This document shows, in pieces, positions 9,219-13,741 of a stretch of 64,000 bases of DNA. This DNA comes from Acidobacteriota bacterium (GTDB lineage Bacteria; Acidobacteriota; Vicinamibacteria; Vicinamibacterales; JAKQTR01). Made by a program: the position numbers and the translations under genes. Position 1 is the first letter of the stretch. Every line of letters begins with the position of its first letter. The notes beneath the pieces were generated by a model that was not told where the DNA came from, searched no databases, and saw only the letters and a list, made by a program, of their open reading frames with translations. The DNA lies in NCBI GenBank assembly GCA_029562975.1, contig JAKQTR010000016.1:35887-99886 (forward strand), read 5' to 3'.

Positions 9219-10343
9219 ATGAGTTCAATTCGATCGACCGGCACCGAGCGCCGCGACTTCCTGAAGAAGGCCGGCCTTGGCGTCGCCGCCGCGGGGACTC
9301 TGCTCACCGAATCCCTGTCCGGGCAGAGCTCCGTCAACCGGCAGCTCTCGGAGTCGGAGAAGCTGTCGCGCCTCGCGATGACGTGCTGGCCGCAGCGCCA
9401 CTTGTTCAAGACGTACGGCCGGATGGGCGCGCCGGACGCCGAGACCGCCGGGCTGCGGAAGAAGTACGGCGAGATCACGATGCACGACCTGCCCAAGTGG
9501 ACGAAGGATTTCTTCCCGGGCATTTACCACCTGGATTTGTGGTCGGACGTCTTCGGCGACCCGGCCGACACGGCGCAGTACACCGAAACGACGGTGGACC
9601 GGAACGGCAAGCCGTTCACGGTCCGGCGCTGGGATCCGTCGGCTCCCGCCTCCAAGAAGTGGGTCGAGAAGCTGGCGTCCATCATCGCGAACGAGAAGTT
9701 CGTGTGCCAGCACATCTCCAACAACGCGCCGCAGTTCCTGGCGGATCCCGACGATGCGAAGCGCAAGGACGGCATCCGCGTCGCGAAGCTCTGGCTGGAC
9801 GCCGCGTCGGTGCTCGGGGCCAAGACGATGCGCTGCAACACCGGCGTCACGGGCGTGCGGATCATGCCCGAGGCCGAGGCCCACTCGACCGGGTACCCGA
9901 AGAACGAGAAGATCGTGCTGTACCTGAAGCAGTGCATCGAGTCGTTCAAGGAGCTGGCTGACTACGGCGCGACGGTCGGTGTGAAGATCACCATCGAGAA
10001 CCACTGGGGCCTCTGCGCCAACCCCATGAACATCCGGATCATCATGGACGAGGTGAACCACCCGTACTGCGAGTGCACGCCGGACTTCTGCAACTGGGAG
10101 AACGAGTACCACCTGTTCCACGGCCTCGACGCGGTGATGCCCTACACGCACACCCACGTGCACGCCAAGTACTGGGACCGCTGGAAGACGCCCGAGAAGG
10201 ACTGGAACGACGTGCGGCGCAGCGTGCGCATCCTGAACGCGCACCGCTACACGGGGACGATCGGCCTCGAGTGGGAGAACGGGCCGATGGACGGCATCGA
10301 GGGGACGAAGTGGCTGATGAAGGAGGTCCTCGCGGCGCTGTAG
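9219..10343 (+). CDS. Xylose-isomerase-like TIM-barrel protein (sugar phosphate isomerase/epimerase family) with twin-arginine signal
   Basis: Inner ATG at 9219 follows AGGAGG. The N-terminus MSSIRSTGTERRDFLKKAGLGVAAAG is Tat-type. The body carries TIM-barrel family features (ITIENHWG, HTHVHAKYWD, GLEWE). Confidence 0.8.
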   Translation: MSSIRSTGTERRDFLKKAGLGVAAAGTLLTESLSGQSSVNRQLSESEKLSRLAMTCWPQRHLFKTYGRMGAPDAETAGLRKKYGEITMHDLPKWTKDFFPGIYHLDLWSDVFGDPADTAQYTETTVDRNGKPFTVRRWDPSAPASKKWVEKLASIIANEKFVCQHISNNAPQFLADPDDAKRKDGIRVAKLWLDAASVLGAKTMRCNTGVTGVRIMPEAEAHSTGYPKNEKIVLYLKQCIESFKELADYGATVGVKITIENHWGLCANPMNIRIIMDEVNHPYCECTPDFCNWENEYHLFHGLDAVMPYTHTHVHAKYWDRWKTPEKDWNDVRRSVRILNAHRYTGTIGLEWENGPMDGIEGTKWLMKEVLAAL

Positions 10344-10366
10344 GAGAGTGAAGAGGAACAGGGGCG

Positions 10367-10452
10367 AGGGGCTGGACGCTGGCCGGTCAGGATTCGGCCG
10401 CGAATCCCCGCGGCGGAAGCCGCGTCAGACCGGCGCCAAGCGCCCAGCCCCT
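10367..10452. other. Nested multi-stem GC-rich structure in a convergent spacer (possible ncRNA, REP-like element or complex bidirectional terminator)
   Basis: - Outer stem 10367-10375 / 10444-10452, 9 bp.
- Second stem 10377-10382 / 10436-10442, with bulges.
- Third stem 10383-10388 / 10428-10433, 6 bp.
- Hairpin GGATTCG-GCCG-CGAATCC at 10390-10407.
- Hairpin CGCGGC-GGAA-GCCGCG at 10409-10424.

All pairings were checked base by base. Confidence 0.4.
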
Positions 10453-10465
10453 GGCCTCCGGCCAA

Positions 10466-11392
10466 TCAGCCTGCGGGCGCGACGACCGGCTTCTCGCCCG
10501 CGAAGATGCGATCGAGGCGCGCCACCACGTCCTTCAGGTAGGCCGCGTCCCCCCCGCTGATCTCGGTCGTGACCCAGCCCTGGTACTTGATGTCGGCGAG
10601 GGCCTTGCGGACGGCCGGCCAGTCGACGTCGCCGTTGCCCAGGTTCACCCAGGCGTACTGGCTCTTGCCGCGCTCCTGTTTGAAGTCCTTCACGTGGACT
10701 TTCACGACGCGCTGGCCGAGCGTGCGGATCCAGTCGTCCGGGAACCCGTAGAAGAGCATATTGCCCACGTCGAGGTACGCCTTCACCCAGGGCGACGCGA
10801 ACTCATCCACGTACTTGGCCATCTCGAGCGGGCTGAGCAGGAACTTGTTCCAGACGTTCTCCATCCCGACGACGACCTTCAGCTCCTGCGCGAGGGGCAG
10901 GATGCGCTCCCTGATCACCTTCTGCGAGCGCGTCCAGGCGTCCTTGTAGGAGGTCTCGGCGTTCACCACCGCCGGCACCAGGAGCACCGTGTCAGCGCCC
11001 CACAGCCTGGCGTTGCGGAGGGACGTCTCCATGCCCGCCACGCTCTTCGACACCACCTCGGGGTCGGCGCTCGACAGGGGGTACCGCCAATGGTCGGCGT
11101 TCATCACGCCGTGGATCGTCAGGCCGGTCTTCTCGGCGGCCTCCTTGATCTCCGCCGCGACGGCCGGTTCGGCAATCGTGCCGATTTCGATGCCCTCGAA
11201 CCCCACCTCGCGTGCCAGCTTGAACTTGTCGAGATAGGACAGTTCCCTCGGCAGCATGCTGACGTAGAGGGCCTTCTTCAACCCGCCGCCCGCCTGGGCC
11301 GCCGCCGCAGAGGCCGCAGCGGGCCGGAGCGCCGCCAGGACCGAGGCTGCCGCCGTCATCTCCAGGAACCCGCGCCGATCGATCGTTCTCAT
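10466..11392 (-). CDS. Xylose-isomerase-like TIM-barrel protein (sugar phosphate isomerase/epimerase family) with twin-arginine signal
   Basis: Inner ATG at 11392 follows GGGAGGTGG. The N-terminus MRTIDRRGFLEMTAAASVLAAL is Tat-type. The body shows GFEGIEI, VVGMENVWN, AYLDVGN and VHVKDF, typical of this fold. Confidence 0.85.
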   Translation of the reverse strand: MRTIDRRGFLEMTAAASVLAALRPAAASAAAAQAGGGLKKALYVSMLPRELSYLDKFKLAREVGFEGIEIGTIAEPAVAAEIKEAAEKTGLTIHGVMNADHWRYPLSSADPEVVSKSVAGMETSLRNARLWGADTVLLVPAVVNAETSYKDAWTRSQKVIRERILPLAQELKVVVGMENVWNKFLLSPLEMAKYVDEFASPWVKAYLDVGNMLFYGFPDDWIRTLGQRVVKVHVKDFKQERGKSQYAWVNLGNGDVDWPAVRKALADIKYQGWVTTEISGGDAAYLKDVVARLDRIFAGEKPVVAPAG

Positions 11393-12856: not shown

Positions 12857-12862
12857 GGCGCT

Positions 12863-12900
12863 GCGGGGGCCCGCGGCCGGAGTCGGCGGCGGGCCCCCGC
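12863..12900. terminator. GC-rich perfect hairpin between convergent stop codons (bidirectional terminator-like, no U-tract)
   Basis: GCGGGGGCCCGC at 12863-12874 pairs perfectly with GCGGGCCCCCGC at 12889-12900 (12 bp), with 4 further inner pairs. It is centred between the stops at 12856 and 12905. Confidence 0.45.
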
Positions 12901-12904
12901 CCCG

Positions 12905-13741
12905 TCAGGATCCCGCCAGCGGCTCGAGATCGATCCTCCGGAAGTAGATCTCCGCGCCCTCGGACTGGATCAGGATCTTCCCCTCCGTCAGGCTCGACCG
13001 GGTCGCCTCGTTCACGACCGTGCCGTTCACCGTCACGGTCACCCGGTCGCCCTGCGCCGTGATCTCCATGCGCGTCCACTGCCCGTACGGGCTCTCGACG
13101 TCCTCCCGGCCGCGAAACCCCAGCGCGTCCTTCCAGTCGGCGTCCCGGCCGTGCCAGTTGAGGCGGCCGCTCGCGAAATCGCGCGCCTCCCCCTTGGGGT
13201 CGTAGAACCACTCGCCGTCGCGGTCCTGCGACGCCCGTGCCGCCAGCGTCGGCCTCAGCCGGGTGCCGTCGGCCTCGAAACCGGCGACCAGGATGAAATC
13301 GCCGACGCCGCCCTCGATGATCTGGGCCTCGATGGATCGCATCCACGCGCCGTTGAAGTCCTTTCCGGTATTGCCGTCCGCCCCCTGCGCGTGGATGAGG
13401 ACGCCGCTGTCGCGGGCCGCGTTCTTCCGCTGGCCCCAGGTCAGCAGCCCCCACCGGAACTCCACGACCAACCGGTAGTCCCGGTAGGACTCCCGGGACA
13501 CCAAGCCGCCCCAGCGCTCCCCGCTGATGCGGACGGCGGGCGCCCCGTCCACCTGATCCACGACGCTGAACACCCGCAGCGGATCCTCCCGGTGCGTATC
13601 CACGAGCCACGGGTAGAACGCGTCGAGCGTCTTCCCGTCGAAGAGGCGAATCACGCCGCCCGGCGTGACGGCCGGCTGGGCGGCGGCGGCCGAGGGCACG
13701 GCGAGCGCGGCAAGGAACAGGACGGACGGCGCGATGCGCAT
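12905..13741 (-). CDS. DUF1080 (3-keto-disaccharide hydrolase family) secreted protein
   Basis: ATG at 13741 follows GGAGGT. Signal peptide MRIAPSVLFLAALAVPSAAAAQP. Family-typical LFDGKTLDAF, YRDYRLVVEFRW, SGVLIH, ILIQSEGAEIYFRRIDL. Confidence 0.85.
   Translation of the reverse strand: MRIAPSVLFLAALAVPSAAAAQPAVTPGGVIRLFDGKTLDAFYPWLVDTHREDPLRVFSVVDQVDGAPAVRISGERWGGLVSRESYRDYRLVVEFRWGLLTWGQRKNAARDSGVLIHAQGADGNTGKDFNGAWMRSIEAQIIEGGVGDFILVAGFEADGTRLRPTLAARASQDRDGEWFYDPKGEARDFASGRLNWHGRDADWKDALGFRGREDVESPYGQWTRMEITAQGDRVTVTVNGTVVNEATRSSLTEGKILIQSEGAEIYFRRIDLEPLAGS

Follow-up and report, generated by a model that had tools for sequence, protein, structure and literature searches.

We analysed a stretch of 64,000 nucleotides (contig JAKQTR010000016.1, positions 35,887 to 99,886) from an Acidobacteriota bacterium of the order Vicinamibacterales. 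This stretch, hereafter the window, has a G+C content of about 70%. Positions 9219-13741 hold four genes encoding two xylose-isomerase-like TIM barrels (TIM-A and TIM-B), one Gfo/Idh/MocA oxidoreductase (Gfo) and one DUF1080 protein, separated by intergenic gaps of 122, 174 and 48 bp (Table 1). A BLAST search of the 64-kb window detected no extra paralogues of the four genes, and a scan of positions 8900-15300 for promoters and terminators gave nothing beyond the expectation from shuffled sequence. Public annotation of the four proteins is generic. The identical Gfo protein is found on 19 contigs of sewage and activated-sludge assemblies, including the Vicinamibacterales metagenome-assembled genome (MAG) GCA_035408625.1; when clusters were searched for a cultured organism with the gene set, only MAGs came up.

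Signal sequences were read from the N-termini, with cleavage sites placed by eye. TIM-A starts with T-E-RR-D-F-L-K followed by a hydrophobic stretch and scores 26.5 bits with TIGR01409 (cut-off 16.7 bits). Gfo carries T-RR-E-F-V-G, again followed by a hydrophobic stretch, and at 16.5 bits falls slightly below that cut-off. TIM-B shows D-RR-G-F-L-E, a hydrophobic stretch and then ASA/AAAQ. The DUF1080 protein begins with MRIAPSVLFLAALAVPSAAAAQ, a Sec-type signal lacking the RR pair. Among relatives the RR motif is kept in 73 of 82 Gfo proteins, in 25 of 26 TIM-B proteins and in all 20 copies of TIM-C, a further barrel described below. All four window proteins are therefore predicted to be exported, three by the twin-arginine translocation (Tat) route and one by the Sec route. 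An earlier note on this DNA, written by a model from the letters alone, had listed the same gene content, with twin-arginine signals on both barrels and Gfo and a secreted DUF1080 protein; coordinates, Pfam families and signal motifs bear this out.

We determined how far the gene set is conserved by using an alignment of Gfo to scan a single genome of each species, which gave 80 loci of 36-83% Gfo identity (designated by L numbers); the window proteins were mapped onto these loci and all open reading frames (ORFs) were clustered. The whole block is kept in Vicinamibacteria-like contigs, namely L007-L009 and, reached via DUF1080 homologues, L087, L089 and L091. The Gfo/TIM-B pair recurs in other classes of Acidobacteriota and in Gemmatimonadota MAGs. 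Adjacency, whose loss in relatives the earlier note had named as a refuting outcome, is thus conserved. Fully flanked loci with 43-60% Gfo identity number 31 and derive from Terriglobia, Bryobacterales and Gemmatimonadota MAGs. A PF01261-type barrel lies within 3 kb of Gfo in 24 of them; across the same 31 loci TIM-B itself is present in 15, two barrels in 10 and a barrel together with DUF1080 in 6. At distant loci TIM-B is 55-68% identical, exceeding the conservation of Gfo, and the Gfo stop codon is followed by the TIM-B start after only 8-24 bp in 10 of 20 loci. In the window TIM-B is transcribed divergently from Gfo. We also compared ORF densities around Gfo relatives of at least 43% identity, leaving out the three closest loci and using search profiles built from the neighbours themselves: TIM-barrel ORFs reach 21.9 per 100 kb within 3 kb of Gfo versus 0.2 per 100 kb at 3-10 kb, an approximately 100-fold enrichment, and DUF1080 ORFs number 12 versus 0 in the same two distance classes.

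In about ten Terriglobia loci the genes form a tight same-strand run of a TonB-type barrel, a DUF1080 protein of 210 aa, a Tat-signal TIM barrel (TIM-C), Gfo, TIM-B and an FG-GAP/ASPIC protein. At L015 (5117-13928, + strand) and at five further loci the gaps within this operon measure 8-28 bp; the outer-membrane barrel belongs to PF25183, TIM-C, Gfo and TIM-B all carry Tat signals, and the last protein is of the FG-GAP/ASPIC-UnbV type. The operon appears to be uncharacterised. TIM-C is not orthologous to TIM-A, and the small Terriglobia DUF1080 protein is only remotely similar to the window copy. The same set of four families has thus been built from non-orthologous members, suggesting a functional link between the families rather than inherited gene order.

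Other neighbours are found further out in the Gfo family: relatives of 37-53% identity often have Tat-signal sulfatases, and not TIM barrels, beside them (nine loci), which hints at sulfated-glycan contexts for sister Gfo subfamilies.

Gfo has more than 5,700 relatives at E<=1e-20. The protein carries a GAGGRG Rossmann motif at residues 48-53, Asp73 at the end of beta-2, EKP at 146-148 and E243-x-x-x-H247, which reads D-x-x-x-H in relatives. Tat signal, GAGGRG motif and Asp73 are at most indirect signs of a tightly bound, non-exchanging NAD. In searches of the PDB with the family profile, inositol dehydrogenases, 1,5-anhydrofructose reductase (AFR) and DgpA appear at about 1e-13 (DgpA at about 5e-13), followed by the glucose-fructose oxidoreductase GFOR (about 1e-8), SqgA (8qc2, 2e-7) and GH109 (2ixa, 1.4e-5; 6t2b, 2.5e-5). 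The window Gfo also matches the P2B11 3-dehydrogenase (8tdi) at 6.6e-7.

The invariant residues E178, D208, H233 and E277 of TIM-B align with the four metal ligands of UlaE. TIM-B scores 92.4 bits against PRK13210 (cut-off 200) and 42.8 bits against psicose epimerase (cut-off 300); it stays below the cut-offs of the L-ribulose-5-phosphate and ketose 3-epimerase families (UlaE, DTE, DPE) and carries a conserved Tat signal. We compared both barrels with BT1 and AL1, TIM-barrel 3-keto-beta-glycoside 1,2-lyases with a His/Asp/His metal site and a Glu base, which belong to the 'alternative broad-specificity' glycoside breakdown systems BT2156-BT2159 of Bacteroides thetaiotaomicron and AL1-AL4 of Alistipes (Nasseri et al., bioRxiv 10.1101/2024.03.25.586180; Liu et al. 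2021, PMC8121099). No chain identifiable by name as BT1 or AL1 was returned at E<=1 with either the TIM-A or the TIM-B profile.

The family of TIM-A is small, with 613 of 1.84 billion representatives matched at E<=1e-3, and conserves the residues E260-N-H262, P288-D289 and E351. In the PDB its profile finds the uncharacterised Planctomyces structure 4ovx (1e-83) and then Art22 (1e-19), for which a literature search returned unrelated papers only. Catalytic subunits of C-glycoside deglycosidases (DgpC, DfgA and CarB types) are matched at 1e-19 to 1e-10, mostly in the C-terminal half of TIM-A, and the 3-keto-glucoside 4-epimerase YcjR (6wn6) at 9e-4. An AlphaFold2 model of mean predicted local distance difference test score (pLDDT) 86 suggests a beta-hairpin insertion at about residues 121-138. 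Foldseek places 4ovx on top for this model, with epimerases, DgpBC, YcjR and Art22 following at nearly equal scores; the fold of TIM-A therefore does not discriminate for function. We considered TIM-A as an obligate member of the set and dropped this idea: DUF1080 or Gfo lies near the TIM-A homologue in L092 and L094, and neither does in L095 and L096. In L092 (2954-15152) the 54%-identical TIM-A homologue sits amid two pyrroloquinoline quinone-dependent dehydrogenases, a cytochrome c and a LacY-like permease, and is adjoined by a distinct run of TIM, DUF1080, Gfo and TIM, in which Gfo lacks a signal peptide.

The DUF1080 protein of the window is a member of a highly conserved subfamily of 277 aa; its best 120 relatives are at least 72% identical. 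Its C-terminal motif reads IQSEG where the solved structures 4jqt, 3hbk, 3h3l and 4hxc show QDHG, and DSG takes the place of their NSG. The conserved residues of the DUF1080 lyase/hydratase are E103, N134, E164, Q166, Y190, K245, Q273 and H275 in the numbering of BT2, the Bacteroides protein, and BT2 His275 has been reported to contact the sugar 2-OH. Judging from the spacing in BT2157-like chains, not from a full alignment, E103, E164/Q166 and Q273 likely correspond to E75, E138/Q140 and Q259 of the window protein, N134 to D111 and H275 to E261. In L094, where a DUF1080 protein adjoins a TIM-A homologue of 50% identity, Glu again stands at the position of the motif His (CLESEGG); the DUF1080 protein in the DUF1080-Gfo-TIM run of L092 is canonical (LQLHAGG). 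Compared to short DUF1080 proteins, residues ~181-217 form a conserved insertion of 37 residues rich in invariant Trp, Arg, Asp and Gly (NW.GRD..W.D..GFRG..D.ES), which may act as an extra substrate-binding finger. At E<=10 NCBIfam holds no family for either DUF1080 type, that of the window or the small one of 210 aa. An AlphaFold model built with 20 homologues of at least 71% identity reached a pLDDT of 54 and was used neither for fold search nor for residue mapping.

We judge it moderately probable that the four genes form a periplasmic module that processes glycosides via a keto-sugar intermediate, most probably cleaving them without a classical glycosidase. The data establish to which families the proteins belong, that they carry export motifs, and that metal ligands and gene linkage are conserved; every chemical step, the carbon oxidised, the roles of the single enzymes and the substrate are inferred, as follows. 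Gfo would fold and bind NAD(P) in the cytoplasm before export, which would explain its use of the Tat route. Once exported it would oxidise a ring hydroxyl of the glycoside, by analogy that at C3. TIM-B, presumably a divalent-metal enzyme with Glu/Asp/His/Glu ligands, would then take the acidic proton next to the ketone, leading to beta-elimination of the aglycone; we assign this step to TIM-B because it is the conserved partner of Gfo. The DUF1080 protein and perhaps TIM-A could serve the other anomer, the hydration of the 2-hydroxy-3-keto-glycal, or both. Finally, the 3-keto-sugar would re-oxidise the cofactor bound to Gfo, so that the net reaction would equal a hydrolysis. This reading follows the route demonstrated for BT2156-BT2159 and AL1-AL4, and is supported by the shared family set and export, by the Gfo/TIM-B linkage, by the sets rebuilt in Terriglobia, by the UlaE-type ligands of TIM-B, by the deglycosidase subunits among the PDB matches of TIM-A and by the probable retention of BT2 E103, E164/Q166 and Q273 in the DUF1080 protein.

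Several observations weigh against this reading. The earlier note had matched the locus to the hydrolase-independent route of glycan breakdown; family set and export agree with such a match, but no window protein is orthologous to any characterised enzyme of a 3-keto pathway. Gfo reaches no NCBIfam family cut-off: it scores 43.7 bits against BT_2158_fam (NF058561, cut-off 750), with only the N-terminal 190 residues covered, and 48.1 bits against the levoglucosan dehydrogenase LgdA (NF052479, cut-off 650). Its profile matches the AL3/BT3 structures (8tdf, 8tdh) weakly (E 2.5e-5). The closest solved relatives of the TIM-B profile are epimerases, not lyases (UlaE at 2e-18, then D-tagatose/psicose 3-epimerases at about 3e-8; MJ1311 and Art22 are matched as well), and a 2-hydroxy-3-keto-glucal hydratase is found with an E-value of only 0.23. 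The first metal-ligand position is Glu in both TIM-B and TIM-A, in contrast to the His/Asp/His site of BT1. In the DUF1080 protein Glu261 replaces the motif His, which is probably the equivalent of BT2 His275, and Asp stands at the Asn of the NSG motif. The four genes alternate in strand (+ - + -) and do not form one operon, which implies at least three transcription units. As to linkage, DUF1080 accompanies merely about one fifth of the more distant Gfo relatives, and TIM-A homologues frequently occur without such neighbours, so that the linkage of TIM-A is inconsistent beyond Vicinamibacteria. The synteny within Vicinamibacteria also takes in a monomeric isocitrate dehydrogenase, an amino-acid permease, a CBM9/DUF5916 protein and PIG-L; since these genes are clearly unrelated, it is weak evidence of function.

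The main rival is a redox-neutral epimerisation or isomerisation, which we regard as unlikely but to be taken seriously. Here Gfo would oxidise a sugar or glycoside, TIM-B would invert the neighbouring centre, in the manner of YcjR with YcjS/YcjQ in E. coli or of ketose 3-epimerases, and the same bound cofactor would reduce the ketone again, with the net effect that an unusual epimer of a sugar in the periplasm becomes usable. The solved relatives of TIM-B, all of the best of which are epimerases, and its four metal ligands, identical to those of UlaE, speak for this scheme, as does a conserved core consisting of just Gfo and TIM-B. A cofactor that cannot exchange in the periplasm would suit such a cycle of oxidation and reduction with its closed redox balance, and the 4-epimerase YcjR is detected by the TIM-A profile. 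The TIM-B profile, in contrast, does not detect YcjR at E<=1, and sequence similarity among xylose-isomerase-like barrels does not part epimerases from lyases. DUF1080, a lyase/hydratase family, recurs with Gfo and TIM-B in both Vicinamibacteria and Terriglobia, and the TonB-type receptors of the Terriglobia operons suggest uptake of oligosaccharides; epimerisation explains both less well.

A periplasmic oxidation of cyclitols or free polyols, in which Gfo would resemble IolG and the barrels would act as dehydratases or isomerases like IolE and IolI, is quite improbable. The best NCBIfam match of Gfo is indeed IolG, inositol dehydrogenases head its PDB lists, and TIM-B gives faint matches to IolE and hydroxypyruvate isomerase. 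However, all of these scores lie far below the cut-offs (79.2 versus 355 bits for IolG, 27.8 versus 290 for IolE and 22.2 versus 353 for hydroxypyruvate isomerase), and neither barrel reaches a hydroxypyruvate or inosose isomerase model; a clustering of the barrels with such isomerases was an outcome that the earlier note had named as refuting its proposal. Known inositol catabolism is moreover cytoplasmic and needs genes of the IolC, IolD and IolB types, none of which is present in the 20-kb neighbourhood, and the DUF1080 and HGSNAT-like partners do not fit such a route. We give still less credit to Gfo as a self-contained NAD-dependent glycosidase of the GH109, GH4 or SqgA type, with barrels and DUF1080 acting on the free sugars downstream: GH109 enzymes have the Gfo fold and Gfo matches both GH109 and SqgA, but simple dehydrogenases are matched far better (about 1e-13), and the tight coupling of Gfo to TIM-B would not be expected for a self-sufficient enzyme. 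That the genes are unrelated neighbours from large Acidobacteriota families, kept together merely by inherited gene order, could be argued from the alternating strands, from the synteny extending to isocitrate dehydrogenase, permease and PIG-L and from the TIM-A homologues that often lack such partners elsewhere, but it is very hard to credit in view of a Gfo/TIM-B adjacency persisting at 43-60% Gfo identity in other classes, the roughly 100-fold enrichment of TIM barrels near Gfo and a family set rebuilt with non-orthologous members.

The genes surrounding the module are included in Table 1. Among them, an HGSNAT-like gene and a Tat-signal aldo-keto reductase are part of the conserved block but lie outside the stretch that the earlier note covered.

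Table 1. Genes of the module (first four rows) and of its surroundings in the window.
Feature	Position	Strand	Length	Family, motif or setting
TIM-A	9219-10343	+	374 aa	Pfam PF01261, E 2.4e-20
TIM-B	10466-11392	-	308 aa	Pfam PF01261, E 3e-41
Gfo	11567-12856	+	429 aa	Pfam PF01408, E 1.8e-15; PF22725, E 1.2e-12
DUF1080 protein	12905-13741	-	278 aa	Pfam PF06439, E 5e-27, 95.6 bits
HGSNAT/NagX-family polytopic membrane acetyltransferase-like protein	13763-14917	-		HGSNAT and NagX similarity
SSF symporter, Sec-signal GH84 beta-N-acetylglucosaminidase, PF07090 GATase1_like, ceramidase-like protein	15098-20730	-		same-strand run
Aldo-keto reductase	20852-21814	+		Tat motif MDRREFITRSS, PF00248
CBM9/DUF5916 protein	21846-24512	-		gene order as in L087, L089
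Amino-acid permease	24532-25935	-		gene order as in L087, L089
PIG-L de-N-acetylase	~25943-26860	-		gene order as in L087, L089
Cupin, then signal-less Gfo/Idh/MocA protein	4163-5764	+	144 aa; 383 aa	3.4 kb upstream of TIM-A

Immediately upstream of DUF1080, on its strand and 22 bp away, stands the HGSNAT-like gene; the two are therefore probably co-transcribed. The same arrangement is seen in L007-L009, L087 and L089, and two Acidobacteriaceae loci have a NagX/HGSNAT-like relative of 30% identity ahead of TIM-C and Gfo. Where the window gene starts is uncertain, with lengths of 384-415 aa from gene callers and a longest ORF that extends to 15010. Human HGSNAT (heparan-alpha-glucosaminide N-acetyltransferase) matches the protein in two stretches with an E-value of 3e-17. 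THAPW aligns with KHASW, and the His of this HASW/HAPW stretch is the putative catalytic residue. Against the NCBIfam family NagX (NagX_SO_3504) the protein scores 156.5 bits (cut-off 480), and it has no Pfam match even at E 10.

The run of four genes between the HGSNAT-like gene and the aldo-keto reductase, of which two junctions overlap by 4 bp and in which the Pfam match of the ceramidase-like protein is weak, may share a transcript with the HGSNAT-like and DUF1080 genes. It is absent at the matching position in L087 and L089, suggesting a lineage-specific insertion into the conserved block. The GATase1-like gene of this run, 2.7 kb off, could recall ThuAB; we rejected that reading, as the gene belongs to PF07090 and not to ThuA (PF06283). 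In L087 and L089 a Tat-signal aldo-keto reductase adjoins the HGSNAT-like gene (in L087 an orthologue with MDRRDFIV at 5623-6588, - strand). The window protein has weak similarity to DkgA/DkgB and is a possible accessory keto-sugar reductase, which within the module could offer an alternative sink for the 3-keto-sugar. As a nicotinamide-dependent enzyme that is predicted to be exported, it poses the same question of cofactor recycling as Gfo. On the other side of TIM-A, the signal-less Gfo/Idh/MocA protein could take the role of the cytosolic second oxidoreductase (BT4) of the Bacteroides system; in L087 and L089 this protein is not seen in the 8 kb flanking DUF1080 on each side. In the mechanical ORF list a spurious ORF of 975 aa hides the PIG-L domain.

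Together the HGSNAT-like gene, GH84 and the PIG-L deacetylase hint at chemistry of glucosamine (GlcN) or N-acetylglucosamine (GlcNAc), which we treat as a lead and not as a result. Within the module the HGSNAT-like membrane protein might N-acetylate free amino groups on the periplasmic side, which would make glucosamine- or GlcNAc-containing glycans the substrates. A wider and rather speculative proposal, to which we attach a low probability, is that Gfo and TIM-B are the core of a widespread acidobacterial periplasmic pathway that is coupled to TonB-type uptake and cuts or remodels glycans oxidatively, the Vicinamibacteria version serving amino-sugar glycosides such as glucosaminides. In that version the membrane enzyme of the HGSNAT type, working from the cytoplasmic side, would acetylate the substrate, and the DUF1080 protein would use its acidic pocket (Glu for His, Asp for Asn) to recognise the group at C2, whether 2-amino or 2-acetamido.

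Tat-signal Gfo proteins, 'sugar phosphate isomerase' barrels and DUF1080 proteins abound in Acidobacteriota, Planctomycetota and Verrucomicrobiota, and almost all of them are annotated generically. The present analysis reveals the Gfo/TIM-B core as widespread in Acidobacteriota. If the pair works like the Bacteroides system, part of the glycan turnover in soil and wastewater would be oxidative and independent of glycosidases, and surveys based on carbohydrate-active enzyme families do not count such a route. The Gfo/TIM-B pair, the TonB-type operons and the DUF1080 variant downstream of the HGSNAT-like gene are clonable targets, which also allow asking whether the route handles amino sugars. 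To a specialist this will be a useful lead rather than a surprise, since the authors of the Bacteroides and Alistipes work already predicted distant versions with divergent architectures.

Among known systems, several share single features with the window set. In E. coli, YcjS, YcjR and YcjQ are a glucoside 3-dehydrogenase, a 3-keto-glucoside 4-epimerase and a reductase located in the cytoplasm. Here too a xylose-isomerase-like barrel acts beside a C3 ketone in partnership with a Gfo dehydrogenase; unlike those of the proposed module, these enzymes work in the cytoplasm, include a reductase of their own and epimerise instead of cleaving, and YcjR is matched only weakly by TIM-A and not by TIM-B. 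GFOR of Zymomonas mobilis, a Tat-exported enzyme of the Gfo family that works by a ping-pong mechanism in the periplasm with tightly bound NADP, is a precedent for the use of Tat by the window Gfo, but the similarity is distant and GFOR acts alone on free sugars. In the LacABC/ThuAB systems of Caulobacter, Agrobacterium and Sinorhizobium, 3-keto-disaccharides are formed in the periplasm and then pass to a DUF1080 step; in those systems a flavo-cytochrome complex or ThuAB acts as the dehydrogenase, and no LacABC or ThuA (PF06283) is present here. For the levoglucosan pathway (LgdA/B1/B2/C), the window Gfo does not qualify as an LgdA equivalog. Literature searches on further 3-keto-glycoside or DUF1080 work in the phyla concerned returned nothing beyond Nasseri, Liu and Price.

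The earlier note had included C-glycoside breakdown and suggested a comparison with DgpA/DgpBC- and CarABC-type systems. In DgpA/DgpBC, DfgAB and CarA/CarBC a Gfo-type oxidation to the 3-keto-glycoside is likewise followed by metal-dependent cleavage in a TIM barrel, and TIM-A and Gfo match subunits of these systems, although no orthology was found. The small beta subunit (DgpB/CarC) that such cleavage requires is not encoded in the gene set, and the intergenic gaps are too short to leave room for it. The window set is therefore not a C-glycoside deglycosidase system. The P2B11 glucuronide cluster, from the same study as the Bacteroides system, combines two Gfo proteins and two TIM barrels without DUF1080; it shares with the window the two barrels accompanying a Gfo dehydrogenase, and differs in that the window set is predicted to be exported and includes DUF1080.

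The Bacteroides and Alistipes systems are the closest counterparts. Oxidation, 1,2-elimination and hydration by their exported enzymes have been resolved biochemically. They share with the window a Tat-signal Gfo, which in their case holds a non-exchanging cofactor, a xylose-isomerase-like barrel and DUF1080, all exported. As export signals are found in three of their four enzymes, an entirely periplasmic location, which the earlier note had pointed out for this gene set, is no distinguishing trait. The same note had described DUF1080 as a hydrolase family; the activities demonstrated are those of a 3-keto-glycoside lyase and a hydratase, and the window copy, a member of PF06439, departs from the conserved motifs, with Glu in place of His and Asp in place of Asn. 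Further differences concern both proteins and gene layout: the window Gfo is not of the BT_2158 family and none of the four proteins is orthologous; the two exported barrels belong to different subfamilies with Glu/Asp/His/Glu ligands instead of the His/Asp/His of BT1; there is no adjoining SusR-like regulator or adjoining cytosolic second Gfo, the cytoplasmic Gfo of the window lying 3.4 kb off, past unrelated genes; and the genes alternate in strand, so that an operon layout with its own regulator is not found. The window in turn has HGSNAT-like and Tat-signal aldo-keto reductase partners.

As far as can be judged from sequence, the window set would work like the Bacteroides and Alistipes systems but lies outside their protein families, and would thus represent a divergent version of a described pathway. 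It is distinguished by two exported barrels of different subfamilies, by a DUF1080 protein with an acidic pocket and by its HGSNAT-like and Tat-signal aldo-keto reductase partners.

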